From an uncultured Nitrososphaeraceae archaeon (GTDB lineage: Archaea; Thermoproteota; Nitrososphaeria; Nitrososphaerales; Nitrososphaeraceae): a stretch of DNA of 64,000 bases. A program made the position numbers and the translations under genes. Of the stretch, positions 1 to 63,490 are shown piece after piece. The notes beneath the pieces are model-generated. The model was not told where the DNA came from. It worked only from the letters and a program-made list of their open reading frames with translations, and searched no databases. Every line of letters starts with the position of its first letter. Within the stretch, counting starts at the first letter, position 1. The stretch is from the NCBI GenBank assembly GCA_963765895.1, contig CAVXZB010000019.1, forward strand, positions 352,001 through 416,000, written 5' to 3'.

Positions 1-117
1 TTTGAATGACCGTCAGCAAGTGAAGCGAGCAGCTACTGCTCTATGAGTATAACTCTTGCTTGAGGGGCACTGAACTTTGCCTGAAATTTGTGATCTTTTA
101 ACAATAATACTAGTCAA
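1..117 (-). CDS. aroA: EPSP synthase, 5' end (runs off window; apparent +1 frameshift at ~30)
   Basis: TTG start overlapping the aroK stop; translates MTSIIVKRSQISGKVQCPSSKSYTHRAVA (PxSKSxxHR motif); removing C30 continues LASLADGHS. Confidence 0.85.
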
Positions 118-949
118 TTACTTCCACACTTGCTTTCTTGTTGTTTAATTTAGAAACTAGTATTTTTCCATCATATCGCGAGAATGCAGCCATTATACTA
201 TCTTTGTTCTCTAAATAAGTAACCGCTGCTGTAGATGGTCCGTTACCAGATATTGATGCGGACAATGCACCGGCCTTGAGCGCATCCAATGCAGGCCTGG
301 AATCAAATCCAGATATACTAGACATGATCACTCCGTTTAATTTCATGGCCTTCCAGTATTTTCCAGATTTTGCTAAATTAAATGAGTCGAAAAAGAGATC
401 AGACATTATTGGTAGATGAGATATGAAATCTCCTCTTGTTTCTTGCGCTGGCAAAAATATCAAGGCGTATAAGTCTTCTGGAGCTCTATAATGCTTGAGT
501 AATTCATGTGAACGATTATCAGTAATAACTATGCCTCCATAATAACACGCAGCTGCGTCATCAAACGCTCCTGTAATGGTCACACCAGCTTTGACCGATG
601 CAGCAACTGCCGACTCTAATACACATTTATCATCTAAGTTATCGCCAGTTATCTTGAAGCATGCAAGTGATAGAGCGCTGGTGACGGCGCTAGAGCTTTT
701 CAAGCCGTAACCAGCAGGAATTTCTGATGTGATTTTAATGTTTATCTGATTTTGCGAAACGATATCTTTTGGTAAAATTATCAAAGCCAAATCTTCAAGT
801 AATTCTTTACCGATCTCTGTCTGGACTTTTATTCCTCTTCCTTTAGAAAGGCTTACTTCTGCGCTAACTTTAAGGGAAATTCCGACAGCAGAGCCATATC
901 CTGTACCGATAGCATTTAGTATAGATATTGCACCATGTACTGTAGCCAT
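110..949 (-). CDS. aroK: Archaeal shikimate kinase (GHMP family)
   Basis: GAISILNAI start, IPAGYGLKSSSA GHMP loop, ITGAFDDA, SGNGPS; in aro cluster. Confidence 0.95.
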   Translation of the reverse strand: MATVHGAISILNAIGTGYGSAVGISLKVSAEVSLSKGRGIKVQTEIGKELLEDLALIILPKDIVSQNQINIKITSEIPAGYGLKSSSAVTSALSLACFKITGDNLDDKCVLESAVAASVKAGVTITGAFDDAAACYYGGIVITDNRSHELLKHYRAPEDLYALIFLPAQETRGDFISHLPIMSDLFFDSFNLAKSGKYWKAMKLNGVIMSSISGFDSRPALDALKAGALSASISGNGPSTAAVTYLENKDSIMAAFSRYDGKILVSKLNNKKASVEVID

Positions 950-969
950 AACATGCCTCTTCAGATAAA

Positions 970-1815
970 TTATTCACCAAATGGTCCAAGCAATGCTTTT
1001 TTCATTACCTCTAATGGAGCAGGAATTCCGGTCCAGATTTGGAAGGATTCAGCACCCTGTTCTAGTAACATCTCGTACCCATAGACTACGGTAGCTCCTG
1101 CCTGTTTAGCGTTTTTAAGAAAATCAGTAAGAACTGGCTTATATACGATGTCATAAACTATACTATCAGTTGGGATATTTTGAGCACCAATGATAGATTT
1201 TTCATCGTGCATTCCCAGAGGCAGCGTGTTAACTATCATATCTGCTCGGTTCGAGAGTAATAGTACTTCGTCTAGGCTAAAAGATTCACACTTTGCTCCC
1301 AGTGTATTTCCAATCTTAGCTAGTTCCTTAGCTCTGCCTATGTTCCGATTTATAACAGAGATCTTCGGATTCTCAGCTTTACTTGATAGAGCAACAATTA
1401 CTGCGCGTGCTGCCCCGCCAGCTCCTAATAGTAAAATATTTAATCCATTCAGATTTATCCCCCTCTTCACTAATGGTCTGAGGAATCCGCCAACATCAGT
1501 ATTGTAGCCGTAGAGTTCACCGTCAACATTTTTAACTGTGTTCACAGCACCTGCTTGAGTTGCAACCCTATCCAAGACATCAATATACTTCACCATTCTT
1601 GTTTTGTGCGGTATAGTGACATTGAATCCCGCAAGCCTTACCTCCTTCAAGGAACAAATAGAGGCTGCCAATTCCGAATATGTTACCCTATACGCAATGT
1701 ATGAACTCTCAAGTTTAAGAAAATTAAAGGCAGCGTTATGCATTGCAGGGGATAAGGAGTGTTCTATAGGGTCGCCAATTATGCAATATGTCTTAATGGA
1801 TTTCTCCAATCCCAT
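970..1815 (-). CDS. aroE: Shikimate dehydrogenase
   Basis: IGDPIEHSLSP, NVTIPHK, GAVNT, NTD, GAGGAARA. Confidence 0.97.
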   Translation of the reverse strand: MGLEKSIKTYCIIGDPIEHSLSPAMHNAAFNFLKLESSYIAYRVTYSELAASICSLKEVRLAGFNVTIPHKTRMVKYIDVLDRVATQAGAVNTVKNVDGELYGYNTDVGGFLRPLVKRGINLNGLNILLLGAGGAARAVIVALSSKAENPKISVINRNIGRAKELAKIGNTLGAKCESFSLDEVLLLSNRADMIVNTLPLGMHDEKSIIGAQNIPTDSIVYDIVYKPVLTDFLKNAKQAGATVVYGYEMLLEQGAESFQIWTGIPAPLEVMKKALLGPFGE

Positions 1816-2859: not shown

Positions 2860-3735
2860 TCATCGATGAACGAAGTGGGAGGGAATCTTTCTCCAATTTG
2901 CTATGAGAGCATTTGGTCTTATATGCAGGCCTTCTTCTTTCAACCTATCTCTAGCTAATTTGACGTAGTCTTCGATGATATCCATTCCAACATATCGCCG
3001 TTTAAAGTGTGAGGCGACCTTGGTGGTTTGACCGCTGCCATTGAATGGATCCAGGATTGTGTCACCTTTGTAAGAATACAGCTTCATCAATCGATATGGT
3101 ATCTCCTCAGGGAACGGACACGGATGGTTTATGTAACCCGGAGGGACAGGGGCAATATGCCATACCGAATTTGCTATTTCCTTGGTCCATTCTTCGTGAG
3201 TCGCTGGCAATGCATCTCTTCTTTGGTTTCTACCTGAGTTCACGTTTCCTTTCCGGAGGACCAGAATAAATTCGTGCATTATATTGGCTCGATAATACTT
3301 TGGATAGGGATTTATTACAAATGATCCATATCTATTGGTTCCGCCTGTAACTTTATGCCAAATGATTTCCTCATGGAGATTCCACTTCCCATAAGGTTCA
3401 ACGAGTCTAGAAAGAAGCATATGAGGCAATGGTAACAAAGTCCCATTTACCAATTCGTTACCAATAACTATACAACAATATCCACCCTCTTTAGTTACGC
3501 GAAATATGCTTTCGTTAAATATCTGCACCATATCAGATAAGTAATCGGAGGTTTCCTGTCTCAGTCTACCACGAAAGTATCCTCCATTCTTCGAAACATG
3601 CATATCGTAATCAATTGCATTTCGGTATGGAGGAGACGTGATAGTCAGCTGGATAGATTCAGGAGCTATCTTTTCTAGAACTGATTTGCAATGACCTACT
3701 GTGATCGTATTGAGAAGGCTTTCTTGAAGTAACAT
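2860..3735 (-). CDS. Orphan beta-class N4-cytosine/N6-adenine DNA methyltransferase (probably m4C)
   Basis: N-terminal ITSPPY (motif IV), HPCPFPEEI, C-terminal ILDPFNGSGQT (motif I); no adjacent endonuclease. Confidence 0.92.
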   Translation of the reverse strand: MLLQESLLNTITVGHCKSVLEKIAPESIQLTITSPPYRNAIDYDMHVSKNGGYFRGRLRQETSDYLSDMVQIFNESIFRVTKEGGYCCIVIGNELVNGTLLPLPHMLLSRLVEPYGKWNLHEEIIWHKVTGGTNRYGSFVINPYPKYYRANIMHEFILVLRKGNVNSGRNQRRDALPATHEEWTKEIANSVWHIAPVPPGYINHPCPFPEEIPYRLMKLYSYKGDTILDPFNGSGQTTKVASHFKRRYVGMDIIEDYVKLARDRLKEEGLHIRPNALIANWRKIPSHFVHR

Positions 3736-10662: not shown

Positions 10663-11274
10663 TCACTTAGCTAGCACTTCAATATCATGTTTCGTGTCGA
10701 TATCTATCATTGTGTTATCAGATAACAGCACAAAGATGGACGCCTTAGCGTCGAGTGCTTCTTCGATATGTCTAGTATAACTATCGTCATCATAATGCGT
10801 CTTTATCACGTCAATTGGTTTCCGTAAAAGGAGGTTTGTCCCATCATGTCTTAACGAGGGACAGATTCCAATGCACTTATCGCAAGATTCGCCTAATCTA
10901 GAGATCTTGTCGATATGTGACGGCTGGAGAAGAGGCAGATCATGTGGGACTACGATGTTCGCATCTGCACCATTTTTGTTACTAAAATCATCACCTGTAG
11001 TTACTGCTTGATCGACCCCAGAATCAACATCTTCCTTCAGGAATTTAGCGCCCATTCTGGTACTAATTAACCTTGCCCGCTCATCTCCGGAGACTATAAT
11101 TACAGTATCAACCGATTTAGAATTATTTAAAGTCGAAACCGTATCAATTAGGAGTAATTCTGTTAATCTTATACGAGATTCTTCGGTTAAAAATAATTTT
11201 AGTCTAGATTTGCTCGTTTCAAACCGTTTGACAGGCACAACTGCAAAAATTTTATCATTCAATGCTGTAAACAA
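10663..11274 (-). CDS. cofC: 2-phospho-L-lactate/PEP guanylyltransferase (F420 synthesis)
   Basis: VVPVKRFETSKSRL, VPHDLPLL, DGTNLL, DIDT; next to cofD. Confidence 0.92.
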   Translation of the reverse strand: MFTALNDKIFAVVPVKRFETSKSRLKLFLTEESRIRLTELLLIDTVSTLNNSKSVDTVIIVSGDERARLISTRMGAKFLKEDVDSGVDQAVTTGDDFSNKNGADANIVVPHDLPLLQPSHIDKISRLGESCDKCIGICPSLRHDGTNLLLRKPIDVIKTHYDDDSYTRHIEEALDAKASIFVLLSDNTMIDIDTKHDIEVLAK

Positions 11275-11289
11275 TGCGTTAAAATATAA

Positions 11290-12186
11290 TTAGCAAGCGA
11301 ATTTTCCTCTGTTCTGCTTTTCATAATGATGTTTGTACAGATGGACGCAAATATTGAACTTAGATATCTTTTCGACTATTTGGTCATCACTTTCAGAAAT
11401 AATGAATTTACCCAATATGGTTCTGTAGTGCTTTGCAACTCCCAGTGGCGAGACCTCTACATTCATACATTTCATGTATTTCTCTGCTGGTCCGGAAATT
11501 ACTCTGTTACCAATAATAGGAGATATCGCTACTATTTTTTCCCTCATTGATCTAAGTTCAGCTCTAAATTCCTTTAATGACAACATCGGTCCAATACTGC
11601 TGATCGGATTAGCCGGAGCGATGACTATCGCTCGTGACTTTTGTAGAGCATCGATCGCGATGGGATTTACTTTGACATTACTACATCCACTATAGCGTAT
11701 AGATCGAATTGTTGGCCTTCCTTTTTCTCTTACCCAGAATTCCTGAATATGCAAATCACCACCATCAGTCATTAACCTTGTTTCCATATGATCATTTGAA
11801 ACAGGAATAATTCTTGGTAGAACATTAAATTTTCGCCTAAGAAAATCTGTTATCTGGGTAAGATTCTTACCTTCCTTTAGCAATTTAGTCCTGAGCACAT
11901 GGGTTGCCAAGTCCTTATCACCCAGCTTAAACCAAGTAGGTGCACCAAGGATTGCTAGCCTGCCTTTAGAAATGAATAAGAATCCTGCTTTATTCCCCAT
12001 CCATTAGCTCGAATCCAAGATATTACCAAGGCCGTAGAGAACAGTGTCCAAGTCTGGACAAACGTACATTCCGTGCAACCAAATATTGTCAGCCACATTT
12101 GATATCACTACCAGATCTTTGACTGACTTGGCCAGCCCTCGAATTAGTTTTATAGAGCCGGTTCCTCCCGCTATTACTGCGATCAA
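11290..12186 (-). CDS. cofD: 2-phospho-L-lactate transferase (interrupted by compensating indels at ~11960-12010)
   Basis: AGGTG, CPDLDTVLY, WFKLGDKDLATH, APANPISSI, SGPA; an alternative frame restores the GWGIKQDS motif. Confidence 0.93.
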
Positions 12187-12448
12187 GTTTGGATTTCTAT
12201 TGTATATGCATAATGTATAACTTTCGAAGTCCTACAGTTGGAGCCCTTTGAAGTAAATGCGCTCTAAATGACATTTACTGAGCCTTTAAGATCCCTCTTC
12301 CACACAATTGATCAAAAAATTTTTCCCCGCTGATCGATTAGAAATAAACATACTGCCGCTCAGGATATAGACAACCGAAAGAATTATTAATGCTAGAAGG
12401 AGTAAGGTCGCAACAAAGATTATAAACAGGACACATGAGAGTTTTGAT

Positions 12449-13483
12449 GTGAAGGCTGTAACATTTTCTTCATATGCGTTTATCGTAGTTGTTTTGTTGG
12501 GGGGTGCTGTGTCTTATGTAAAGGGTGTGCAGATGACAACGTTATTAATCCCAGCTGAGAACTCTGCCAAAGGGGATTTAGTCGGAGTAAGATTTATTGA
12601 TCTTAAATACGATCCCGGTAGTACGATTTCTAAGCAACTCGCTGGTAAAACGGAAAACGTTCGGTTTACACTAAATTCTTCTGATCCTGCCATGGCAAGG
12701 ATTGTATCTATTATAAATAGTGATATTGCTTCACAGAAAAAAAGTCCAGTGAGATTTACTAATGCTTCTTTAGTATATACTGGCCAGATACGTGGTGACG
12801 CGGACAGCGCGACACTATCTTATAAGGTGAATATCAAACCCACCATCAGTAACTTTGTACCTGACAAAAGCAATCAGGGTACTGTTGTCGATTTGGATTG
12901 GCGTGGGTTTGTAATAGATGAACCCTTGGTAGCTAATGTGCCCAAATATGGAAATATGAGTATCAACTATCCCATCGGGCTTTTGCAAGCTACGCATCCA
13001 GATTTAGCCAAAAAATTCCTTGCTTCGGCCTCATCTTCGGCTATGAAGACCCCATTGTTGGATTTTCAAGATGTAGCAAAATCTATGGATTCATGGCATT
13101 TCTTGTTTGATCCAACTGGAAGTCAGGCCGGTGCTGCGGGCTTCAAAGAGGTCGGAGGTGCTCGTGCTGTTTCTATCTATTCATTAGGAGAGAGTAGTTT
13201 CAGAGAAGGAACTATGACAGAAAAAGTGTCCGATACCACAGCAAATATTAACGGCTCTCCTGTAGGGGTTCATTCTAGTACTCCTCCGCCTAGTGCCCAA
13301 ATTCAGATTACGGGATTTTCTAATATTCGTAAGTCTGGAAATAGCGAACTGGCATTTGTGTCAGATAAAGCACCGGAAGGGACGGTTACGGCAACAGGTG
13401 GATTTCCTATCCAGGTGCTGCTTGTATTAGGTGGGATGATGGGGGCCGTGGCCGTTTTTGTTCTCCTCAAGGCAAGGAAATAA
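12449..13483 (+). CDS. Exported protein with C-terminal membrane anchor
   Basis: Hydrophobic N-terminus; C-terminal TM GGFPIQVLLVLGGMMGAVAVFVLL plus basic KARK. Confidence 0.8.
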   Translation: MKAVTFSSYAFIVVVLLGGAVSYVKGVQMTTLLIPAENSAKGDLVGVRFIDLKYDPGSTISKQLAGKTENVRFTLNSSDPAMARIVSIINSDIASQKKSPVRFTNASLVYTGQIRGDADSATLSYKVNIKPTISNFVPDKSNQGTVVDLDWRGFVIDEPLVANVPKYGNMSINYPIGLLQATHPDLAKKFLASASSSAMKTPLLDFQDVAKSMDSWHFLFDPTGSQAGAAGFKEVGGARAVSIYSLGESSFREGTMTEKVSDTTANINGSPVGVHSSTPPPSAQIQITGFSNIRKSGNSELAFVSDKAPEGTVTATGGFPIQVLLVLGGMMGAVAVFVLLKARK

Positions 13484-13538
13484 AAACATTGGTAGGAATT
13501 CAAGTTCGAACAACCAAAGATTACTACGACTAGTCAAC

Positions 13539-14079
13539 TTAATCCTTTCCTTGAAATCTTAGGTAGTATCCAATATCAAGTACGTTTATGACGGTGACAG
13601 AGCCCTCCTTGAATATATGCTGGCTTGGAACCTTCGCCAGACCAATTGCAAGGGTTTCTTGTTTACTGTTTATGATTACTAGATTTTGGCTGGCTTTGAT
13701 ATTGGGACTTGCATCGGTAATCGATTGTCCAAATACATCTCTCCCATATAGTACTAATTTTTCCCCCATTTCATTGACGGTTATAAACGGGTACTTGCGT
13801 CCTACTTGGTAAATAATTTCAGCTCCTTGCAGAGATGGAATAAGTCGTTTTCCAAGACGACCAATCATTAAGCCCACATGTGTTGGACATATTAATAGTG
13901 CTATTTCGCCTGCACTTTTCGATGTCAAATAGACCTCCCTTACTTTGGTCTTCGATTGTTCCTTAATTAGTATACATTTATCGTTCCCTTCGAAGTATTC
14001 GAAACATCCTAATCTATCGTAAGTCCTCCTAAGCACTGTTAGTTCTCTTCGAGTAGGATTCCTGTACAGGTTTATTCAC
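13539..14079 (-). CDS. NIP7-like PUA-domain ribosome biogenesis protein (GTG start at 14079 if one G at 14069-70 is removed)
   Basis: GEKLVLYGRDVF and DIGYYLR; follows the Nop2 homolog; corrected N-terminus MNKLYRNPTRRELTVL. Confidence 0.8.
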
Positions 14080-15040
14080 CACTATTTACACGAATTTTCG
14101 CAATAAAGAAGCCAGAAGTATTATGGAGATGGGGATAGAATCGACGTGTATTAGTTAGACGTTCATCCAGTCTCAAGTCGCCGTACTTCGTTAAACCGGG
14201 CTCTCCGTATTTTTGTGGTTCAATTTTGATCTTATTGTTCATACTTAGCAGTTTGTTGATCACTAATTCGTTTTCTTCAGGGGCAAAGGTACAAGTAGAA
14301 TAAACTATTAGGCCGCCAGGTTTGATGATATTGATAGCGCACTGAAGCAACTCGATTTGTCTAAGCATACAACTCGCTATCTGTTGAGGCACCAACCTGG
14401 TCTTTATAGTGGGATCTTTTGCGATTATACCTTCGCAACTACATGGCGCGTCAAGAAGAATCCGATCGAACTTTAATCCCAGCTTACCTGCGTGCGCCCC
14501 GTTGAGTGCATAAATACATGAGTTTCTGACACCACATCGTGATAGATTAAATCTCAAAGCATTTATCCTCTTTATACTTGGTTCCAATGCTATGATGCAT
14601 CCCGAATTTTGCATTTTCTGTGAAATGTATGTTGTTTTGCCTCCAGGAGCAGAAGCCATATCTAAATTCAACTGGTTTGGTAACACGTCTAACTCATCGA
14701 CTGCGAGGCAAGAGGAAAGATCTTGAATATAATAATATCCTCGAAGGTATTCTGTCGTTGCGCCTATCGGATAGCGGGACCTTTTGACTAGTAGAACTTC
14801 ATCCAAAATCGTGTCTTCGTACGTTATATCTTTTTGTATTAGTTTCTGAATTAGCTCACTTTTGGTTATTTTCAGGGTGTTGATCCGAATGTATTTAGGT
14901 GGCTCTTTTTCCATAACTCCTAAACAGTCTTCCAATTTTGGGATAAACTGCAAAAACCTACATACCATCCATTCTTTATAGCCAAACTCCTGCGAGATCT
15001 CATTGGAAATTGTCGAAGGAGGGAAACTGTAAACACTCAA
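14072..15040 (-). CDS. RsmB/NOL1/NOP2 family RNA m5C methyltransferase
   Basis: IRINTLK, YYIQDLSS, DMASAPGGKT, LLDAPCS, YSTCT, PEENE, GFFIAK. Confidence 0.95.
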   Translation of the reverse strand: MSVYSFPPSTISNEISQEFGYKEWMVCRFLQFIPKLEDCLGVMEKEPPKYIRINTLKITKSELIQKLIQKDITYEDTILDEVLLVKRSRYPIGATTEYLRGYYYIQDLSSCLAVDELDVLPNQLNLDMASAPGGKTTYISQKMQNSGCIIALEPSIKRINALRFNLSRCGVRNSCIYALNGAHAGKLGLKFDRILLDAPCSCEGIIAKDPTIKTRLVPQQIASCMLRQIELLQCAINIIKPGGLIVYSTCTFAPEENELVINKLLSMNNKIKIEPQKYGEPGLTKYGDLRLDERLTNTRRFYPHLHNTSGFFIAKIRVNSGE

Positions 15041-15204
15041 TTAATTGAGGAGTGTTTAAATCTCGATTATTTAATAATTTATGAATGCTAAATAGGAGAA
15101 ATTCTGGGTGTGAATTAAATTCAACCGGTATTTTGAAGTTACATCCCAAGCTTCGTTCGATTCTGAGCCTACGTTGTCGGCATGCTCAAATTGTATAAAG
15201 CCGT

Positions 15205-15490
15205 GGTGTGCTAGCAGTAACCCTCCTTTTGTTTTAAACGAGATTTCGCTGAGCGGCCAACCTGAGGTATTGCAGGAATATTAGCCCTCTATTTGGCCTT
15301 GCTCCACTCGGGTCGGCAGTTTCATTCTAGTGTACAATCTTCAGATTATTCACCATCATCAGGACACGGTCGTACCTAGATTTCTTTTCTATTCCGTAGC
15401 CAGCTGTCTCCAGCTAATTATCGCTAAATCGAGTGCCTGCTATGAGGGAGGAGTTTCCTCTCTTTGAAGTGACTCGCTCACTAGCTCACC
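15205..15490 (-). ncRNA. rnpB: RNase P RNA (archaeal)
   Basis: Minus strand carries GAGGAAACTCC (CR-I), TGAAAC, GAGCAAGGCCAAATAG and AAAACAAAAGGAGGGTTACT (CR-V, pairs with CR-I as P4); termini GGTGAGCTAG/CTAGCACACC form P1; internal TGATGA...CTGA K-turn-like motif. Confidence 0.93.
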
Positions 15491-15528
15491 TAAATTCAAA
15501 AGGTTCAACAAGCTATATTTGAATATTC

Positions 15529-16029
15529 TTATCCAAAGTAATCTCGTTCAACTCTCATGACTTCCTCTTGATTGGTTGCACGAGAATATTCCTCTAATGG
15601 TTCAGCATTGAGTTCAAGAAAGGTGTGACCCCATTTGAATTTGTTCATAAGTTCAACAGATAAACTTTTGTTTCCGAGTATATAGGCGGCTCCAGCCAGC
15701 GCCTCTGCTGTAGATAATTTTCCGACTTTAGAATAGTTAGTTGGATTTCCGGCCAGCAAGAACGGCAATCGCCTGTTGTTTCTGGAGCGAAATGCAGTTT
15801 GTTTCTCGGCAATATGTTGAATTTTTTCCCAGGAACAATCGACCGCACAGATTGATTCTGAGGTAGATCTATCACCGGCTGACAGTAAAATGTCTGAAAA
15901 TGGATTAAGTACTATGCTTAGCCTATGGAACGTTCTAACTTGTATCGCAAGCCTGAATTTGACTAGTTTTAAGGCTGTGCATTTTGACGGTTCGTCTTGA
16001 TTAAGTAGCATTATCTCGAGCCTCACCAA
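15529..16029 (-). CDS. tsr3: rRNA aminocarboxypropyltransferase Tsr3
   Basis: DEPSKCTALKL, DCSW, RRLPFLLAGNPTNY, LSTAEALA, FKWGHTFLELN. Confidence 0.95.
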   Translation of the reverse strand: MVRLEIMLLNQDEPSKCTALKLVKFRLAIQVRTFHRLSIVLNPFSDILLSAGDRSTSESICAVDCSWEKIQHIAEKQTAFRSRNNRRLPFLLAGNPTNYSKVGKLSTAEALAGAAYILGNKSLSVELMNKFKWGHTFLELNAEPLEEYSRATNQEEVMRVERDYFG

Positions 16030-16163
16030 TCATTATTATTGTACCGACTCATTTAAGATTAGTAATATCGATACAATTCAGATCTTTATGAGTAATCCTA
16101 AAAAATAATGTGGTAATATTTATATACCGATCCGTCCAGCTCCCAGCAAACAAGCAGCAAGGC

Positions 16164-16619
16164 TTATGGGTTTAGTCCAAAACGATTCTTAACGATTTCA
16201 TCTATCGTTCCTTTGCTTATTGGAAGATCATTGCTACCAGATGTATTCATAGGAGCTATTTGGTTGGGCCCAGATGCAGGAATTGTATTTGACGGTGGTT
16301 CAGAAGCTGGTTGTGACGTTGTTGTATTTGAAGATGGTTGTGAACTTGTTGTATTTGAAGATGGTTCAGAACTCGGAAAAGAATCATTGTAGCAACTAGC
16401 TAACTCCGTTTCGGTAAGTTCGCCGTCCTTTGCTGCCTTAGATTGGCAACTCGATAATTCTTTTAGAACCTTCTTGGATACATCAGTGGTTGAATGGGAG
16501 TCATCCACCGGCGCCTTGTCCTGTGCAAACGCAAATCGTGCTACTGAGGTACTTGTCGTCACTAATATTAAAAGACCTATGCCAATTGATATGTATGCAG
16601 TCTTTCTTGGTGTACTCAT
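16164..16619 (-). CDS. Secreted Ser/Thr/Pro-rich hypothetical protein
   Basis: Signal peptide ending AFA-Q, two Cys, PSSNTT repeats. Confidence 0.75.
   Translation of the reverse strand: MSTPRKTAYISIGIGLLILVTTSTSVARFAFAQDKAPVDDSHSTTDVSKKVLKELSSCQSKAAKDGELTETELASCYNDSFPSSEPSSNTTSSQPSSNTTTSQPASEPPSNTIPASGPNQIAPMNTSGSNDLPISKGTIDEIVKNRFGLNP
16319..16366. repeat. Intragenic direct repeat (21 nt, 27-nt period)
   Basis: TTGTTGTATTTGAAGATGGTT at 16319-16339 and 16346-16366, with a degenerate third copy nearby. Confidence 0.85.
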
Positions 16620-16855
16620 ACCTCCGCTTTAATTATATAGATAATATGGAATCTGCTAAACAATATTAGAAACTTGCTCTGGCTAAATGTAAGTCCAGTA
16701 TCTTACCATGAATATTTTAGTTATAATTGCCCTCGATACACAGGGGAAATAAACCTGACGCAGAATTAAAAACTTAGCACAATTGGTGTGATAATCTAAC
16801 CTGAAGGGCCCCGGCCTAATATCGACATCTCAATGTCTATCGTATTCTCTTCTTA

Positions 16856-17518
16856 TTATGCAGATCTAAAACCTGCTAGTGCTATCAAAGGTGCTATTAT
16901 TTTAAAATATGAATCTATATCAGTCTCGATGACTTTCCCTTCGTCTACGTTAATGACATATATCATATGTAGTCTCGCGTTTAATATCTCCTGAATCTCA
17001 AGTTGTGGGGATTTGTAATATTGGTCACACAATGACTTTAGCTGTCTTACTGCGTTAGAATTTCTATATGTTGGGGGCGCGGAAAAAGGGACTGGAATTG
17101 GTAGTAGGTTTACGCCGGGTGTTGCCATAATAAATTCAGTTGCATGTTTACTGTACCGAGAAATTTTGCTGACGATTCTAGAAACGTAGTAGGAGAAAGG
17201 ATCTAACGCGTGCTCGGGAGGCATGAAGCCCGTTTCGATTTCTATTATTACCTGTCCGTCACCTTTTGTAGCAAAGACATCGCAAACAAGCGTGTCAGTC
17301 AATTGCTTCTCAACGTCTACGCGATATCCATATCTTATTAGATGCATTGCGCAGATCAATTCCATGACAGAATGATTAATCTTGACAATATTTTTCTTAT
17401 AGAGTGCAATCAGTCTTTCCCTTACGAAATTTAACCTTTGAATATGGTCTGGTGAACATCCAGAAATCAATCTCTCTGATAAGTTAGTTACGTCTGCGGT
17501 GAACCGCTCAACATCCAA
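16856..17518 (-). CDS. Hypothetical protein with PD-(D/E)xK-like core
   Basis: VEKQL..LVCDVFA.KGDG.VIIEIETG resembles a restriction-endonuclease-fold motif. Confidence 0.7.
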   Translation of the reverse strand: MDVERFTADVTNLSERLISGCSPDHIQRLNFVRERLIALYKKNIVKINHSVMELICAMHLIRYGYRVDVEKQLTDTLVCDVFATKGDGQVIIEIETGFMPPEHALDPFSYYVSRIVSKISRYSKHATEFIMATPGVNLLPIPVPFSAPPTYRNSNAVRQLKSLCDQYYKSPQLEIQEILNARLHMIYVINVDEGKVIETDIDSYFKIIAPLIALAGFRSA

Positions 17519-17604
17519 TGCGTGTTTTATTACTTAGCGTGATTTTAAGTGTACCTATTAAAAAAGAGTAAAATTATGGTGCGGGCAAAAATATCTGACT
17601 AACA

Positions 17605-18754
17605 TTGTCTAGCATTAGGAAAATAACAATCATTGGTTCCGGTACTATGGGTCATGGGATTGCTCAGGTGTCTGCAATGGCTGGGTACAATATATCGTTG
17701 AGGGACGTCGAACAAAGATTTCTGGATTCGGCTATTGCAAAGATAAAATGGTCTCTTGAAAAATTATTCCAGAAACAGAGAATTTCCGAGATGGAAATGC
17801 AAAACATACTTGGACGCATTCGATTAACAACCGATCTGAAGGAAGGGTTACAGAATTCAGATCTCGTTATCGAGGCAGTTCCTGAGGATTTGGTCTTGAA
17901 GAAAAAAGTTTATGAAGGGATCGATGAGTTTGCTGAATCCAAGACTCTTTACGCATCAAATACAAGTACGTTGCCAATCACAGAAATTGCATCACTTACC
18001 TCTAGGCCGGACAGGTTCATAGGACTCCACTTCTTTAATCCTCCACAATTGATGCAATTAGTAGAGGTAATACCAGGCAAGGAGACTAAAACAAACATTG
18101 TTGATAATGCTATGAGTTTCATACACTCGCTCGGAAAGCGAGCCTATTCTATGTCGTAAGGATGTCCCGGGCTTCATAATCAATCGAATCTTTATACCAC
18201 TAGTTCACGAAGCGGCCTACTGCTTGGAGAGAGACCATACTAGTTTGGTTGCAATTGATTCCGCAGTCAAGGAAAAGATGAAATTTCCTATGGGAATTTT
18301 TGAGCTTGCCGACTATACGGGTTTGGATGTAATTTATAAGGCAACAATGGAGATGTACTCGAGGGACAAGCGCGTTGTAAATCCCCATCCTATGGTACAG
18401 AAATTATTTGAAGAAGGAAAGTATGGCCAAAAGTCAGGTTCCGGATTCTACGAGTACAAAAATGAACATTATGAGCGAATCAACGTACCCACCAGTGACA
18501 TCCATCAATATAATCCTATTAAATTGGTAGCCTTTGCAGCTAATAATGCAGGTTGGTTGATATCCAATGGTGCTTGTGACGAACCCGATCTTGAGAAAGC
18601 ATTAAAGCTTGGAATGGGGCTTAAATCAGAACTCTTTGAAACAGTTAAAAGCTATGGAATTGAATCAATAATAAACACCTTGCGAGGGTTGGCCCAAGAG
18701 TATGGTTCTGTGTACGAACCGGATCAGTATTTAATAAATAGCCTCCGGAACTAG
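17605..18754 (+). CDS. hbd: 3-hydroxybutyryl-CoA dehydrogenase (3HP/4HB cycle); apparent +1 frameshift at ~18140
   Basis: GSGTMGHGIAQ, IEAVPE, SNTS, GLHFFNPP; corrected junction GKQPILCRKDVPGFIINR; PMGIFELADYTGLD. Confidence 0.9.
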
Positions 18755-18991
18755 CGATTCAATATTGAACCCATGATGCGATGATGCAACGACTTAGTTG
18801 GATTCTTACTCTTATTCAAATACATTTTATAGTATCTGTCGATGTTACTTTGAACGGAGATCTTGGAAAATCGAGTGCTTATAAAAAAAAGTCATGATCA
18901 TAACCAGTAGAGATTACGTGGTAATAAGGAATCATTAGGCTATTTAGATCACCATCTGATCGAATAAAATAATATATGGGCTGATTAAGCC

Positions 18992-20260
18992 TTGAATCAC
19001 ACAATGGTTCACTATAGAATTAAGGATGACTCTCTTGCCCACAGAGGAAAGAAAAAGATCGACTGGGCAGAAGAACATATGCCTGTTTTAGTATCACTTA
19101 GAGATAAATATCGTGATAAAAAACCTCTTGAAGGTGTACGCGTTAGTGGTTGCTTGCATGTAACGAAGGAGACCGGAGTATTAATTAGAACCTTGAAATC
19201 TACAGGGGCAGAATTATCTTGGTGTGGTTGTAATCCACTGAGCACGCAGGATGATGTTGCCGCTTCGATCGCCGTTGACGAAGGAATATCAGTTTACGCA
19301 AGTAAAGGCGTCTCTACGAGTGAGTATTATAAAGACATAAGTAGTGCAATGGAAATCAAGCCTAATGTCACGATAGATGACGGGGCTGACTTAACTGTCG
19401 AGATCCATAAATCGATAGGCGATTTCAAATCCGCATTGTACGGTGGAACTGAAGAGACCACAACAGGTGTAATAAGATTGAGGGCCCTTGAAAAATTAGG
19501 CAAGTTAATGTATCCTATAATTGCAGTCAATGACGCAGAGACGAAACATGACTTTGACAATGTGTACGGAACAGGACAGTCGGCCCTAGACGGTATTATT
19601 CGCGCCACAAATATTCTATTTTCCGGAAAAAATGTTATTGTTGCAGGATATGGGCATGTGGGAAAGGGTATTTCGAAAAATGCTGCAGGGCTTGGCGCCA
19701 ACGTCACCGTTACAGAAGTGGACCCAATCTCGGCATTAAAAGCTAAATTAGATGGGTTTAGTGTTACGACAATGAAACACGCATCATCATTTGGAGATCT
19801 TTTCATTACAACTACTGGTTGCAAAGATGTAATAGGAAGCGAAGCAATTAACGAACTAAAGGATGGAGCGATTTTAGCAAATGCAGGTCATTTCAATGTA
19901 GAAATAGCCGTTTCAGAATTAGAGCGACAATCTGTAAACAAAGTTCAAATCAATGAGAACATAGTACAGTATGACCTGGATCACAAAAAAGTATATCTTA
20001 TAGGAGAAGGCCGCCTGGTAAACCTTGTGGCTGCCGACGGTCATCCTTCCGAGGTCATGGACATGAGTTTTGCCAATCAATTTTTGTCAGTGCTAAATCT
20101 AGCAGAATCAAAAGGCTCACTTAAGCCCATGGTGTATGATATCCCGAGAGAGCAGGACCAAATAATAGCATTGGCAAAGTTAAAATCCATGAATATAGAT
20201 ATTGATACTCTGACGCAAGAGCAAGAAACTTACCTTAACGGATTTAGTCAAGGAACTTAA
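18992..20260 (+). CDS. ahcY: S-adenosylhomocysteine hydrolase
   Basis: CLHVT, NPLSTQD, DDGAD, EETTTG, FDNVYGTG, NAGHF, GRLVNL, GHPSEVMDMSF. Confidence 0.97.
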   Translation: MNHTMVHYRIKDDSLAHRGKKKIDWAEEHMPVLVSLRDKYRDKKPLEGVRVSGCLHVTKETGVLIRTLKSTGAELSWCGCNPLSTQDDVAASIAVDEGISVYASKGVSTSEYYKDISSAMEIKPNVTIDDGADLTVEIHKSIGDFKSALYGGTEETTTGVIRLRALEKLGKLMYPIIAVNDAETKHDFDNVYGTGQSALDGIIRATNILFSGKNVIVAGYGHVGKGISKNAAGLGANVTVTEVDPISALKAKLDGFSVTTMKHASSFGDLFITTTGCKDVIGSEAINELKDGAILANAGHFNVEIAVSELERQSVNKVQINENIVQYDLDHKKVYLIGEGRLVNLVAADGHPSEVMDMSFANQFLSVLNLAESKGSLKPMVYDIPREQDQIIALAKLKSMNIDIDTLTQEQETYLNGFSQGT

Positions 20261-20401
20261 AAGTTCTTTGGAAGATGACTTGTGTCATAAGGTAATTTTG
20301 TACAGTAAGACAATTAATATCAGATTCGTTATGCAGAAGCCGGATCAAATGATTAGATATTTATTTCCATGCAGGTTTGCATTATTTTTAGCCCTACTGT
20401 C

Positions 20402-20476
20402 GGATGGGTGGTCCAGCTTGGTTAAGATACCTGTCTCACACACAGGTGATCGAGAGTTCAAATCTCTCCCCATCCA
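20402..20476 (+). tRNA. tRNA-Val(CAC), no intron
   Basis: Acceptor GGATGGG/CCCATCC-A; anticodon stem CCTGT/ACAGG with loop CTCACAC; T arm GAGAG-TTCAAAT-CTCTC; T run follows. Confidence 0.95.
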
Positions 20477-20509
20477 TTTTCCTGTCGCTCCTCGATCCTC
20501 TATCGATTT

Positions 20510-22264: not shown

Positions 22265-22288
22265 GACGTAAGTTTGTTATAGTGAGTA

Positions 22289-22456
22289 CTAGACTGGGAA
22301 AAGAATTCTAATTAGTAATGATATCCCGATTAAACCCCCAGTAACACCTAGAACAACCTCAGGTTTAATCTTAACACCCTTCGTTTCGTCTTCAAAAAAT
22401 CTTAACAATCCTGCGCTAGAAGCTGGCAGAGGCGCATTTTTCTTTTTGCTGCTCAT
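22289..22456 (-). CDS. secG: Preprotein translocase subunit Sec61beta/SecG (55 aa, not in ORF track)
   Basis: MSSKKKNAPLPASSAGLLRFFEDETKGVKIKPEVVLG...; AGLLRFF motif followed by one TM helix. Confidence 0.93.
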   Translation of the reverse strand: MSSKKKNAPLPASSAGLLRFFEDETKGVKIKPEVVLGVTGGLIGISLLIRILFPV

Positions 22457-22603
22457 TAATTATCAGAGGAATGATTCAGTGCTTTAAATAGATTGCGCTA
22501 CTGATAGTAAAGAGAATTGGCCTCAGAAGTTCTATTGGGTTGACCTAGCTGTGGGATACAAGCAAGTTTTAATAGTTAGAATATGAATAGTCAAAATACC
22601 TAG

Positions 22604-24444: not shown

Positions 24445-24480
24445 GTCTTTTCACCATAAAAATGCCAAAACTTGCCATCT

Positions 24481-45122: not shown

Positions 45123-46608
45123 TTAAAAGATTATTTCAAAGTGTTGCCCTATAAGATTACAAAATTCAGTTTGAGATCGTGATGCAAGAGTTTGCAATTC
45201 TCCCTGCCTATCAGATAGCTCGGATTCGAGTAATCCCAGCTTCTTCTTTTTTTCACTAATGGACATCTTATCCAGTTCAATATCATCCTTAATCATAGTT
45301 ATCTTCTGCAACATTGGAGAACCATCTCTCTGCTCTTTCAGAATGTGCTTTCTGGCACGTATAGCCTCGAGTCTGGAATTAAAACCCGGCAAAAATTCAA
45401 GGATCTGCTTTAGATAATAGCTCGACTTTCTCAGAGTCCTTAAGATCTATCTTTCCTTTTGCGATCGAAGAGTAGATCTCGTGAAGGATTGGGAGGTATT
45501 GGAAGAAATCATTGGTTTGGTCATCATTACTCTGTTCTTCTGGCGCTCGGTATTCTGGGGAAAGTGTTCGTCCGTTGCTAGCTTGCTCGTGCAACAACAA
45601 ATCACCATGATAAAAAATTTTCCATGGCTCATTGGCCATAGTTTGAAGTTTTATAAATAAGTCTTTTTTAACAGGCAGACCATAGGAGTACTTAGTAATG
45701 GCTCTGTTAACGTGTCCGAATAAATCTATTGTTTGTCGGCGAATTTCCTGCTCCTCATTTTCGAGCTGTCTAGACTCATTCTCAATTGCTAATATCTCGA
45801 TATATTCTTTGGTAGATTCGAGATGACGAAGTTCATTGACATGAACATCAACTTTATCCCGCAAAACCTTGATTTCTGAGCCAATATTGTCTACTGCATT
45901 GCGAGCATTCTTGATCAAATTAATCTGCTCAGAAAGAGAAGTCAACAAGGCTTCCGTGTTTGTGAGCGATCCCTTAAACTTTTGATACTCGGTTACCTTT
46001 GATTTGCATTTTCTGGACAAATTAGAAACGGTGTTAGATTCACTCTGTAGTTTGGAGGCATATTTTTTCACAAATGCATTGAGAACTCTGCTATGGGAAC
46101 CACTCAGAGCACTAAATCTATTGACTATTGATTCCAATCTGGCGTCAAACTTCATGACATCCTCCAGCGTAGATATTGAGATGATTTCTGACGTTGATTC
46201 TTTTCTCAACGAAGAGACTATAGTTCTTCTGGAATTCTCAACAATTGATTCAAAGCGTGGCTCCTCAACTTTAATATTTTCTTTTTCAAGATCGTCTGCT
46301 ATCTTTTCGGTATTTTTTAATAATTTCTCAACAGACAATTTTATTGGCATTAGCCCCTCTACCAAGTCCTTAACTTTCATCTCCCCCTGCGAACGTAAAA
46401 GAGCCGCTGCATCTGGAATTGTAATCTCCCTGCCATTCTCATTTACATTGGCTTGTGTGATGCGAGGACTCTCCGAACTACGCGCATCACCAGTAACATT
46501 CATATCATCAGCATTTTTAAGTTTGTTACCATTAACTTCAGTGCCATAGGTTGGGATATCGATTTTAACCTTACTTTTCTTCTTCAAAAAGTCAAAAAGC
46601 GGAACCAA
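45123..46608 (-). CDS. Long coiled-coil protein; apparent +1 frameshift at 45423
   Basis: Two co-linear helical ORFs joined as EKVSYYLKQILEFLPG on removing C45423. Confidence 0.75.
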
Positions 46609-57300: not shown

Positions 57301-57561
57301 AACATCCTTATTTTACACTAATTCATATTTTAGCTTACTTAATATGGAACTTCAAAACATGCTAGCAATTTTCTGGTTTTGATGTTTTTCAAAGATGGCC
57401 GTGGACTTTCTGCACATCTGTTGGGCTGATTGGGCGCATTGGCCCTGTATTGTCCGGTATTCTTGCAAAAACACTCGCGGGAAATTAACTTTGGCATTCG
57501 ATATCTATACGCCTGAATTTGTTTAACTGATTTGCCAAACATTCGAGTCAGAATTTGTTTA

Positions 57562-58558
57562 GAGCCTATCACAAAAACAGGTAGACATATAGCTTGTGAG
57601 GGTTTTGTTCATAAGTGTGGCTTATGAAAGTCAAGTATCTTCCGACTGTCAAAGGAATCCCGATGCGCTATGGGGATGAGGCCAGATTGTTGATATCTTC
57701 CAATCTAAGGAGAAGCACTTCAATAAGAAAAACTAAATAACACCATCTGACTTACAGCAGCAGTCTCATTTAGGAAGGTATTCGGTGGCATTCTGTATGT
57801 TTTTGGAATGTCTTAAGAATTGAATGTCAATGTCAATAGAAGATAGATGTTGCCAAAGGAGTATGGTTCAGGTTCGACATATCATAGACTATTCCTGTAA
57901 TGGTCAATATAAGATATTTGAGAGATTATGGACTAGACGTGCTAAAAAAAGTGTATGATGGCTAAAGTAGGAATTCAATAGAGAGGCAACTACTTGATAG
58001 TAGTAGTATATCGGTAAAGGCATCTCCAGGCAGAAATGACTGATTGGACCTAATCCTATAGACAGATGTAAGTTAGTTAGGAACAAAGCGTCATCATGTA
58101 TTAATAACCGATGGACAAGGTATTCCATTATCTGTTGTTGTTGTTGTTATAACTGCGGCTAATACGCATGATGATATGAAAGGCAGCTATAAACACGCTG
58201 GATAATACTACCGTAGTTAAAAGATCGTCTAGGACATATAAAGAAAAACAGAATCTTTATCTATCTTGGTAAAGGATATGGCTTTCAAACGATCGTAGTG
58301 TACGAATCGATAAAGGATATCTACCACATATTTGACATAGAGGAGAACAATCAGTTATAAAGATTAATGGTTGTAATAATCATCGTCATCATGCTAAAAG
58401 AAGATGGGTTGTAGAAACAACTAACTCTTGGTATAACAGGTTCAGAAAACTCTTAGTTAGGTACGAGAATAAGTTAGGAAGCTATTTTGCATTAGTAGTA
58501 GTAGTATGTTTAGGCTGTTGTATAGTTATCTATAGGAGGATAATTTTGGGACAGGCTC
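57562..58558 (+). mobile_element. Decayed IS5-family element (IS1031-like ends) with transposase pseudogene
   Basis: Imperfect TIRs GAGCCTATCACAAAA / TTTTGGGACAGGCTC, TTA duplicated on both flanks; broken transposase motifs IPDALW, LPKEYGSGST, TAANTHD, RWVVETTNSWYNRFRKLLVRYE. Confidence 0.88.
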
Positions 58559-58634
58559 TTAGTGAAGACTAGACACAGTTAGATCTTATTAAGAATAAAA
58601 GACTAAATAAATTCGGAGCGAGTATTTTATTTAT

Positions 58635-59625: not shown

Positions 59626-61642
59626 GTTAGCGTATCAGCACCTCCATCCTTGTTCCGAAATTGTCCGTGTCCCAACTCGGATAATTTGCAGTCATAGTAA
59701 GATCCAGAACAACTAAGATACGTAGTCTGAAGTCGACATCCCTGGATTGATGAACAAGCTGGTTCGTAGAATTCCATACAAAGAATTTCAGTATTTCATC
59801 TAAGATTAAGCCAGCTACAAATCTATTGGAAACACTCAACAAAGGTTTGAAGTACCATCCACAATTTATGATTAATAATACTATGAAAAGATTTTCTACA
59901 CGCCCCATTGGGTATAGATTATGCTAGATCAATGTCCTTAGCTCTAGCGGAGTACAACTATTTCGACCTCACAATTAGTATCACTGATTGATACATGACA
60001 GGAAGTATGAGAAACATAGGCCCACAAAATTACTCCTTCGCATTTATTATCAGCCGATCATTATCAATGTAATCTACTTCATCTATTAGTATGGTTTTGC
60101 ATCTAATAATCTCCTTTCCTCAAATATATTAGTGAACATTAACTCTTAACTATTGTAGCCAAACTAGACCATTGAATCAAAATAGGAAAGCAAAGGGGAA
60201 ATTCCGTCACTTACCTTGTCACTACATTATATATAGCTTTTAGTTGACGTCCTATTTGCAATATTAGATGCGAAGTGTGTCCCAGCATTGATTTATTGAA
60301 TTTTTGCAAACATGCTGACTTTGACAGAGCGCTCAGATCTGCATACGGTGATACCATATACCTTCTCGTAATAGAAGATCGGAACATAAAGGGCCTGGGT
60401 TATTTTATATCAATTGAGATTGCCGCTTTTGTCAATACGGTCTTCACATGGCCCAAGTATGAAGTTTTTCTTGCTCCTATGAAATCGATGCGTCTCTCAA
60501 TGAAAAAAGGGGTCTTTAATACCTCAATCAGTCACAATTCGATGTACCATAGGTTTTTATCTATTTATGACTACTTTTAAACATGGTGAGGGTATCTAAG
60601 GTTAACGACGGGATTCCGACGTTCGTAAAAGAGTATTTGGATTTGAAGGATATGGATGAGCTCATTTGGGATGAGAATATTCAGGATGGTGTGAGATTCT
60701 TTCGAGTTATTAAGAAGAATCCAGATAGCTCAAATCCTGAGTAAATTGACATTTCTGATAGAAGATTATAGCTATTGCTATACAGATATGGCGTATTGAA
60801 TAGTCTAATTGTGTCTAAGTTGCTAAATTTACCTAAATGAGATGGGCCCTGATTCCTAAGGAGAAGCACTTCAATAAAACTTGTGCAATCCTTAAAATAA
60901 GATCCGCAGTACTCGGTAAAGTAGTGATTCTTATTGACAATCATTTAGCCGAAGATATGAATTTGTAAATACTGAGCTCTTGATTGCAGGTTGTAAGTCA
61001 CAGTCTAATTTCTTATAGTGTTATATACTTACGCATCCTGTGTGAGTAATACAGCTTCGATTTTCAATGTGTAGTAAATTTGTTTCGGTTATTAGGACTG
61101 TTATAAATTAGTCTTAATTTAGTTAGCCGCAAGGATCGTCGTTTGCCAATCCTGAGTCGAAGTCTCTGAAGTGACTAGGTTTACATCAACCCTACAGTCT
61201 GTACCTAGTAGGATTGAGGCATGCGAACACTGAATTTCCCGCATAACAATAAAATGCCGGCTAATAGTGTAAAATACTGGCGGAAATCAGTTTTAGTGCT
61301 TTCTATTCTTTTTGTACGTCAAAGATAACTCCTCGACAATGTCATTGTAGGTATATAAATCACCAGGATTGTTAGGACAAATTTAATTATACTTCATTTG
61401 ATCCTCAACAAAGGACAGGTTTGTTTCTATGAAATCCGCAATAGTCATTTATGCCATTGTAATCGCAGAATACATCAATTTAGACAATACGACTTGGCAA
61501 CAAAATGCACTTCAAACATACATTTAAGTCAAAAAATCCATACGCATGAATAATTTAAGCTCCATTGTTTTTGAATATGTTATAACAGATCCTCTCAATA
61601 CCTGGGATCCGAACCTGATATCATCAATTGTTCGGTTATTCA

Positions 61643-62355
61643 GGCTCTTCACTTAACAATCTTTTCCATAATCTTTCTGTTGTACATATCTACAAATAGA
61701 CTCAACCAATTCATGACATGTTTTAGCTTACAATCATTTTCTTTCCTTATAAGGAAAATAATTATCAAAACACCAGTTCTAACTTTTATGTATTGTATTG
61801 TCCTTTCTATGAAGCTTTTTCTTTTGATGAATGATTGTGATGTTTAACATTCGGGAATCTACATGCTTGTGGATACCATGTACCACCAATCTGTTGAAAT
61901 ATTGTACATTCCTATCTTTTAATCAAACACTGAATAAACGGTTGTTGTTTAGCTGCAAACATGTTCCTTTCAATGGAGATGCCAATACCAAGGATAGTTA
62001 TATCGGTTGGCTCACTAGAAACCCATAACCATGCATAGTCACTATCTACTTCAATCAATTTTTCATCTATCTATGATAAATCCAGATAGTTTGCATCTCG
62101 TTTGTTTGCAATATCTATCTTCCTCTGCATGTAACGCTAAATCCAGTTCCAAATAAATGGAAAACATGATTTCTTTTAACAATGAGATAGCCTTTATGAT
62201 GTTTTTAAGTAATAGGCCTGAAAAGTACAACTGTAAGAAGTAATAAACATATACTTTGATGGGGTCCTACGTCTTTAATTCTTTGTTTGGATATAGTCAT
62301 CATTAAAGTGTAGGGAGTTTTCAGATATAGGTTTATTCGTTAAGTGAACAGAGCC
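61643..62355 (-). mobile_element. Decayed IS6-family element with transposase pseudogene
   Basis: TIRs GGCTCT(GT)TCACTTAAC at 61643-57 and GTTAAGTGAACAGAGCC at 62339-55; minus-strand fragments LQLYFSGL, YAWLWV, ERNMF, GGTWYPQACRF, IERTIQYIK, CKLKHV.NWL. Confidence 0.85.
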
Positions 62356-62385
62356 CTGAGGACTATAAAAGCTTAAAAAGGATAT

Positions 62386-63490
62386 ATGTTCATGCTTGAC
62401 GTATCTATGATACTGCCTTACACTAGACGGAATGGTCCAGTACAAAATGAATTCATTAATCGCTGTGTTGGATATAGGTCATTTCACCACTCTCGAACAA
62501 AATATGCAAGTCCTGTAATATTCATCAGCTTGCTAGTTGGCTTTATTATTAGTTCTCCTTTTTCGCTGGTAGGAACTACATACGCGCAACAGGCAGCAAC
62601 AAAACTCCCAGAACGGATGTCATGGGAAACTGCAAAGGCTAATCCAGTCTCTAAGATGGAATCGGCATATGCTGCAGTTGGGGATAAGATCTACATAATC
62701 GCTGGTTATGGCGAAACAGGTAAAAGAAACAAGAATACTGTAGAAGTATACGATACAAAAACTAATTCGTGGTCAACTGCCGCTCCGGTGCCGGTAAACT
62801 TGAATCATGCTGCCTGCGGCTACGTATAATAACAAAATCTATTTGGTTGGGGGGTTTTTGGATAACAAAGTGCCGTCAAGTAGACTCTTTGTTTACGATC
62901 CTTCACAAGACAAATGGTTTGCAGGTAAAGATATGCCAACAGCAAGAGCAGCGTTAGCTGCTCAGTTCATAGACGGAGTATTCTATGTAATAGGTGGAAC
63001 ATCCAATAAGCCCCTGAATACTAATGAAGCATTTGATCCTCGCACCGACACATGGACTGAAAAGGCGCCGATGCCCACTGCAAGGCAACATCTAGCCTCG
63101 GCTGTAGTTGATGGAAAATTTTACGCTATAGGAGGCAGACCTACAGGTAAATCTTCAAACCTAGATAATAACGAAGCGTATGACCCTAAGACTAACTCGT
63201 GGAGTAAGTTGGCCGCTATGCCCACAAAACGTGGCGGCATTGCTGCATCTGTGGTCAATGGAAAAATCTATGTTTTTGGAGGAGAAGCTCCAGACAAGAC
63301 GTTCAATAATAATGAGATGTATAATCCGCAGACTAATAAATGGGTCGAAGAATTACCCATGCCAACGGCTCGCCACGGTCTGGCAACTGCGTCGATGGGA
63401 AATAACATTTATGTGATAGGTGGCGGACCCACACCCGATATTTCCTTCGCAAATGTAAATGAGGTATTTCATGCACAAGATACTGGCTAA
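62386..63490 (+). CDS. Secreted kelch-repeat beta-propeller; apparent +1 frameshift at ~62814
   Basis: Signal/TM segment then six GG/Y/W kelch repeats; corrected junction NHAAAATYNNKIY. Confidence 0.9.

Follow-up and report, generated by a model that had tools for sequence, protein, structure and literature searches.

Conserved genes of an uncultured Nitrososphaeraceae archaeon (assembly GCA_963765895.1, here G000) are interrupted by single extra bases, as seen in a window of 64,000 nucleotides (nt), i.e., the whole stretch from position 352,001 to 416,000 of contig CAVXZB010000019.1 (G000:C19:352001-416000) that was analyzed in this work. These extra bases are consensus errors and not part of the organism's DNA, because other reads and congeneric genomes lack them and because reading frames are restored without them. 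Most probably, they are long-read consensus errors that occur at modified palindromes, namely GTAC, AGCT and GCWGC. An initial annotation, made from the sequence of the window alone, had proposed that the frameshifts are a footprint of DNA modification. The disappearance of the bases elsewhere and a strong motif enrichment under blind indel placement support this proposal. The modification of the motifs in this organism, its type, the sequencing platform and the pairing of enzymes with motifs are inferred.

The assembly comprises 4.91 Mb in 88 contigs (G+C 35-39%, largest contig 576 kb) and has a completeness estimate of 88%. Two congeners served as references, G004 with about 95% and G003 with about 88% identity; both represent other species of the genus. 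They span the same 19 kb of the window (11000-30000) from end to end, at 95% and 88% identity, respectively. Insertion sites were placed by three-way alignment of the assembly, G004 and G003 and by pairwise alignments of the whole window. Twenty public runs from nine studies, labelled as soil or rhizosphere metagenomes or unlabelled, contained parts of a 9.9-kb section of the window. For the read check, Logan contigs of four runs from four studies (X1, X2, X5 and X8) were compared with window positions 11000-30000, and the sites considered were those among the 12 of 29 indel rows listed.

Extra bases in conserved genes

Alignment to G004 and G003 confirmed 11 of the 13 positions of the initial annotation as real, assembly-specific single-base insertions, and every confirmed site is in frame in both congeners. 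The remaining two did not stand. At 14069-70, where a frameshift in Nip7 had been suggested, there is no indel, and Pfam matches identify a UPF0113/PUA gene and an RsmB/F gene as separate neighbors. At ~23074, the three-way alignment contains no indel at the GTAC in question. Four further insertions had been missed (10643, 10664, 11339 and 28903).

The expectation that the extra bases vanish in other reads was borne out at 11960, 11963, 23821, 28068 and 28725, where Logan contigs of three to four runs omit them. Two of these sites lie in an ABC-type permease gene. An extra A after GTAC at 28068, identified by alignment, is omitted in all four runs, and its removal lengthens the open frame from 24 to 297 nt. 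At 28725, an extra C (GTAC^C, the extra base following the caret) truncates the permease, such that the BPD_transp_1 match stops at profile position 140 of 184; this base is omitted in X2, X5, X8 and part of X1 (11.3/17.5). Five of the listed pieces of X5 show no other letters than the window, including record 24 (631 bases, 28432-29064) with its two gaps. As X5 is otherwise identical but lacks the bases at 28068 and 28725, the extra bases must be of technical origin.

The gene for TFIIB is split by an extra C before AGCT at 23821 (TCT[C]AGCT), which was found by alignment and is omitted in X1, X2 and X8. Here, the TFIIB repeats recognized by Pfam spread over two open reading frames (ORFs), and the open frame grows from 75 to 291 nt upon correction. 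In the CofD gene (Pfam), two extra C at 11960..11964 distinguish the assembly, TAGCCTGCCT, from relatives and reads, TAGCTGCT, at an AGCT that overlaps GCTGC. Contigs of X1, X2 and X8 leave out both 11960 and 11963, with a value of 9.9/12.3 for X1 at 11960. Also in the CofD gene region, an extra A after GTAC at 11339 is absent from G004 and G003 and is left out in X8. Another insertion into this gene region, at 12010..12013, had been assigned to AGCT. The insertion is real, yet its placement within AGCTCGAATC is ambiguous among AGCT, TCGA and GATC: the extra base is either C at 12010, where the three-way alignment puts the gap, or A at 12013, as in the pairwise alignment, where G003 fits without mismatch.

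GCWGC is the motif at several other sites. Alignments place an extra G (GC^G^AGC) at 18140, where it splits the hbd gene for 3-hydroxyacyl-CoA dehydrogenase into halves that match the Pfam domains 3HCDH_N (17605-18159) and 3HCDH (18224-18754); removal of the base extends the open frame from 63 to 540 nt. The same type of error occurs at 10643, near the 3' end of a CofC-like gene, as an extra G that is absent from G004 and G003, and correction opens the frame from 30 to 135 nt. The Pfam match to CofC is truncated at profile position 179 of 217. Close by, at 10664, alignment to the congeners revealed an extra C inside GTAC (GT^C^AC), with an open frame that increases from 24 to 279 nt. At the left edge of the window, an insertion at position 30 in aroA had been attributed to AGCT; the insertion proved real (27..28), but the motif is GCWGC, as the base lies inside GCAGC (GAAGC[G]AGCAGC, GC^G^AGC), and it is missing at 27 in G004 and at 28 in G003. 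It breaks a minus-strand ORF that leaves the window leftward and that, with the base removed, is open for 90 nt upstream and 669 nt downstream.

A Kelch-repeat gene is split at 62814 by an extra C after GCTGC (GCTGC^C^TGC) that is absent from G004 and G003, with Kelch repeats on both sides. This site rests on the whole-window pairwise alignment, as window positions 59,921-64,000 fall below the 90% cut-off for G004 in the blind test described below. The surrounding region (59,900-64,000) is a more variable stretch, in which only about 88% identity to G004 is left, down from about 95%, and identity to G003 declines to 77-82%.

Other insertions lie beside the three motifs or away from them. The Trm1 gene is split by an extra C that had been located at ~35647 between two GATC; the insertion is real and lies at 35655, where 2 nt separate it from GATC and 3 nt from GCAGC, so that it is in contact with neither motif. 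Its removal opens the frame from 57 to 345 nt, and the Pfam profile TRM is matched in two separate ORFs (positions 13-291 and 300-375). The insertion reported at AGCT at 45423 was found at 45423..45424, 1 nt beyond the motif (AGCTC[G]A). It splits a pair of ORFs of 403 and 89 amino acids that has no Pfam match, and the open frame grows from 42 to 300 nt. Finally, alignments to the congeners show an extra T after TCGA (TCGA^T^) in a T run at 28903, a site within the range of X5 record 24 with its two gaps.

The window contains additional differences. At 18775, between hbd and the next ORF, eight bases (ATGCATTA-like) that are present in G004 and G003 are missing from the assembly. At 12254 (A run) and 15105 (G run), the assembly is one base shorter than the X1 and X8 contigs and both congeners; X2 also carries the additional base at 15105, and X5 matches the assembly at both sites, which lie outside long ORFs. 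These two differences probably are real strain variation. A repeat of about 1 kb (~57,550-58,570) recurs many times in G004 contigs and also elsewhere in G000 (C88, C23, C24 and C19:287228-288251). The window copy contains no ORF of at least 80 amino acids and about 20 small indels relative to the aligned G004 stretch; it probably represents a mobile element that is degenerate or error-ridden.

Motif enrichment under blind indel placement

Indels were also placed blind to the motifs. From the nine largest contigs, twenty further 20-kb stretches were taken at fixed offsets (40,001, 140,001, etc.), and 14 of them were compared with congeners. Together with the window, this gave 15 regions for alignment, with a minimum identity of 90% to G004 and 80% to G003, and an indel was called assembly-specific when the same type and length occurred against both references within 5 nt. 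Seven of the 14 extra stretches gave little or nothing, two having no usable counterpart and five little or no double coverage. Double coverage amounted to 162,793 positions in total, and the aligned regions represent the conserved part of the genome. An insertion was scored as being in contact with a motif if it spans or abuts GTAC, AGCT or GCWGC in the corrected sequence, a condition that 4.09% of covered positions fulfil. Site 11964 was scored as not touching, as its neighbor 11960 stays uncorrected in this test.

Among the 79 assembly-specific indels (54 one-base and two two-base insertions and 23 deletions, 21 of them of a single base and the other two of 2 and 12 bases), 36 of the 56 insertions touch one of the motifs, compared with 2.29 expected (p=3.7e-36). 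Outside the window, motif contact was found for 28 of 42 insertions, with 1.72 expected (p=4.1e-29). Chance is thereby excluded, and the enrichment noticed by eye in the initial annotation holds under blind placement. Ranking all 256 4-mers and 1,024 5-mers without prior choice also brought the three motifs and their sub-words to the top, with 14 insertions at GTAC (0.8 expected), nine at AGCT (1.08), ten at GCAGC (0.24) and seven at GCTGC (0.25). Control classes did not share this preference: motifs are touched by one of 33 bases missing only in G004, by one of 22 assembly-specific deletions and by none of 14 bases extra only in G004. For 27 insertions, 21 of which lie at the motifs, removal restores an open frame of at least 60 nt.

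A genome-wide test that needs no reference pointed in the same direction. A deletable base touching a motif was available at 545 of 746 ORF junctions of the +1 type and at 327 of 564 of the -1 type (odds ratio 1.97, p=1.3e-8). This test is weak (73% vs 58%), with intervals that average 46 nt and contamination by ordinary gene boundaries, and our conclusions hence rest on the alignments.

The extra bases stand in the deposited sequence, and the genome is large (4.9 Mb compared with 1.7-2.8 Mb in other genera of the family). One might thus think of real frameshifted pseudogenes, perhaps with methylated sites as mutational hot spots. We regard this as very improbable. The bases are missing from both congeners and from three further read sets, and in X5, with its five listed pieces free of substitutions, those at 28068 and 28725 are lacking. 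This reading would also demand the loss of TFIIB, Trm1, hbd, CofD and a permease within 64 kb, and ORF-restoring events number 27 in 163 kb. Deletions show no link to the motifs (1/22). Even less credible is programmed ribosomal frameshifting, or recoding of another kind, at the motifs. In its favor, the shifts have the same direction (+1 in the DNA), and the short sequences at which they lie recur. However, in G004, G003 and the read contigs, which lack the extra base, a single frame encodes these proteins, the shifts are not conserved in relatives, and both the inserted base and its position in the motif vary.

Properties of the errors at each motif

Per covered site, insertions were most frequent at GCWGC (16 of 254), followed by GTAC (14 of 391) and AGCT (9 of 544). 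GTAC and AGCT have the highest rates of the 16 palindromic 4-mers, and the others reach at most 0.7%. No significant excess was seen at TCGA (2 of 690 sites), CGCG (1 of 139) or GATC, which the initial annotation had suggested for one site and where we found a single insertion in 749 covered sites. Outside the window, at G000:C84:153721, an extra T inside TCGCGA (ATC^T^GCGATGG) was found whose removal extends the open frame from 84 to 423 nt; in the CGCG context it is a single event and not significant.

At GTAC, a doubled outer base is the commonest error (GGTAC = GTACC, 10 of 14), and the flanks GTACT/AGTAC are favored. At GCWGC, GC^G^AGC and GGCAGC prevail, and no additional flank requirement was seen. 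Widening this motif to GCNGC was not warranted, since only three insertions touch GCSGC, one of them also at GCWGC, which is too few. In general, sites differ in which base is inserted and where in the motif it stands. This also applies to AGCT, for which an extra C on the plus strand had been claimed throughout; the inserted base there is A, C, G or T.

Methyltransferase genes

An SPPY motif marks N4-cytosine methyltransferases, and DPPY or DPPF marks adenine enzymes. Five loci in the genome match the N6/N4 methylase family PF01555 strongly and a sixth matches weakly. One of them lies in the window on the minus strand (2860..3735) and encodes an intact beta-class N4/N6 methyltransferase of 291 amino acids with a TSPPY motif (PF01555, 119 bits). 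All seven genomes of the genus contain a match with an open frame of 297-298 amino acids. Its nearest solved chains are 2zie and the DNA cytosine-N4 methyltransferase 8s9m. Among its 234 relatives, the titles of the best 80 name Nitrososphaeraceae, Nitrososphaera, Nitrososphaerales and Nitrosopolaris and a few Nitrosopumilales or Thermoproteota. The enzyme is a candidate methylase for one of the cytosine motifs.

A second intact protein of this type (281 amino acids, TSPPY motif) is encoded on contig C88. For both intact SPPY proteins, the nearest solved chains include DNA cytosine-N4 methyltransferases. The PF01555 gene on contig C24 differs by its DPPF motif; its product has 353 amino acids, and its nearest solved chains are adenine methylases. 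For all three proteins, these structural matches indicate the class only. A further TSPPY gene (G000:C43:15800-18800) is itself split. Compared with its unbroken, 97.8%-identical counterpart in G004 (a frame of 371 amino acids), it contains two extra coding bases at fragment positions 1028 and 1461, one of them at A^A^GCT. A second SPPY-type copy with a TSPPY motif (G000:C69:38800-41300, 672-1575) is distributed over at least three ORFs; it has no close counterpart among the fetched loci by which error and real pseudogene could be told apart. The gene types of the window, C88 and C43 appear to occur in most genomes of the genus, if not in all, as read from the lengths and places of matches rather than from a tree.

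On contig C84, a Dam-family gene was identified (TIGR00571, 255 bits with a cut-off of 115). No match to the C5-cytosine methylase family PF00145 was found in G000, and the same holds for five of the six congeners. NCBIfam provided no specific name for the three PF01555 proteins submitted, all of which scored below cut-off. The cluster numbers in the supplement table of PMC10609329 were of no help in mapping the genes of G000 to HG10, HG19 or HG21.

Genome-specific indels and assembly type

Each genome of the genus was used in turn as the query against the others, at the loci already fetched. In G005, the other highly contiguous genome (4.8 Mb, 100 contigs), 32 one-base insertions and 21 deletions were found in 47,908 positions. 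G006, G002 and G001, with 180-650 contigs each, had three, seven and five genome-specific one-base indels, respectively, in 34-50 kb. Genome-specific one-base indels were thus roughly tenfold more numerous in G005 than in the three fragmented congeners (53 in 47.9 kb vs 3-7). The excess is found in both contiguous assemblies of the genus, G000 and G005, and not in the three fragmented ones. This excess, together with contigs of up to 576 kb in a soil metagenome, is indirect evidence that G000 derives from long reads of native DNA, which would be nanopore reads.

Discussion

We propose that GTAC, AGCT and GCWGC carry modified bases on both strands. The modification probably is N4-methylcytosine (m4C), introduced by conserved orphan beta-class methyltransferases. 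Modified bases would shift the long-read signal, and basecaller and polisher would then often add one base. At a palindromic motif, reads from both strands would be affected, so that the consensus could not rescue the site. Failure is confined to a small percentage of the sites and depends on the flanking bases. That modified cytosines distort the signal is suggested by the motifs, which include the m4C motifs of this order, together with the matching enzyme class in the genome.

The available text of PMC10609329, a REBASE survey of persistent orphan methyltransferases, reports GTAC (m4C, HG10) and AGCT (m4C, HG19) each in eight of eight Nitrososphaerales and GATC (N6-methyladenine, m6A, HG3) in 27 of 29 Nitrososphaerota; Nitrososphaera additionally has CGCG (m4C) and one methyltransferase of unknown site. 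The survey covers the same clade, and GTAC and AGCT are two of our three error motifs. The genome analyzed here resembles this orphan set in its conserved, orphan-looking PF01555 genes of the SPPY type and its Dam-family gene, for which specificities are candidates only. In contrast to our error motifs, the set as given in the accessible parts of PMC10609329 lacks GCWGC, and its GATC motif shows no error excess here.

The closest technical precedent is Hammerhead (PMC11610603), according to which, in its available text, bacterial modifications lead to motif-linked errors in R10.4.1 reads and assemblies, from which the motifs can be inferred. Like those nanopore errors, the errors described here are motif-specific and persist after polishing; they would lie at methyltransferase targets and could reveal methylation motifs without signal data. 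Modification-induced errors and motif inference from them are thus already known, as far as this source goes, and our observations are nothing new in kind. The Hammerhead errors, however, come from cultured bacteria and are substitutions (C>T, G>A) seen on one strand, whereas we find single-base insertions at palindromes in the metagenome-assembled genome (MAG) of a soil archaeon. New items are possibly GCWGC as a third modified motif and insertions as the type of error.

Several observations weigh against modification as the source of the errors. More than a third of the insertions (20 of 56) lie outside the three motifs, and the insertions in G005 are less motif-bound (5 of 32 touch them). 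Despite the Dam-family gene in the genome, GATC has no excess. Few errors at GATC, which probably carries m6A here, would fit basecallers that are well trained on Dam sites. Assembly-specific substitutions are mildly enriched at the motifs (57 of 2091, compared with 58 of 3653 G004-specific ones; odds ratio 1.74, p=0.004). At 12010, the base is omitted in X8 only, and the X1 and X2 contigs retain it there. From the literature, modification-induced errors in the accessible part of PMC11610603 are substitutions and not insertions, GCWGC has no occurrence in PMC10609329 and its supplement, and the archaeal GCWGC methylases in the available part of PMC11033074 are all of the 5-methylcytosine (m5C) type and mostly from Thermoproteota.

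Some of these points could also reflect context errors that basecaller, assembler or polisher make at these k-mers irrespective of modification, or, as a variant, consensus trouble from mixed strains. Only 2-6% of the motif sites fail, in a flank-dependent manner, 20 of the 56 insertions lie outside the motifs, G005 has many non-motif indels, and X1 contains more than one variant at 11960 and 28725. We nevertheless consider such an origin rather unlikely. All enriched motifs are palindromic, and the three control classes (1/33, 1/22 and 0/14) have no excess of motif contact. To our knowledge, long reads of other organisms do not generally accumulate errors at these k-mers. Furthermore, the top two of the 16 palindromic 4-mers are two of the three motifs that, in the available text of PMC10609329, are persistently methylated in the order (GATC, GTAC and AGCT).

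We therefore favor long-read errors at modified palindromes, with GCWGC as the motif that needs most discussion; it is either a new m4C motif of the genus or a context error. In our literature search for GCWGC in ammonia-oxidizing archaea, the sole finding was an m5C enzyme predicted for Nitrosoarchaeum limnia BG20, in the accessible part of PMC11033074. The archaeal systems of the ApeKI/TseI type, i.e., M.ApeKI and its predicted relatives in that source, share the palindromic recognition sequence. These are C5-cytosine methylases, however, and G000 has no PF00145 match. If GCWGC is modified here, an N4-type enzyme would be the more likely agent, judging by the genes at hand. As a tentative proposal, GCWGC might be a third, uncatalogued persistent m4C motif that depends on one of the three conserved SPPY-type orphan enzymes and not on a C5 enzyme, with insertions in general as a footprint of m4C.

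The errors matter beyond this window. G000 represents its species in a reference taxonomy, and its aligned parts have a density of about 0.34 false insertions per kb, with 56 in 162,793 positions. Extrapolated evenly to 4.9 Mb, this would amount to roughly 1,700 false insertions, with the three motifs accounting for about 1,100. Gene calls, pseudogene counts, the completeness estimate (88%) and protein databases inherit the broken TFIIB, Trm1, hbd and C43 methyltransferase. For the biology of the Nitrososphaerales, the error pattern agrees with GTAC and AGCT as the m4C motifs listed for the order, and it hints at GCWGC as an additional one. If this is true, insertion errors in long-read MAGs would be a footprint of the m4C methylome that could be mined in thousands of public assemblies without raw signal.

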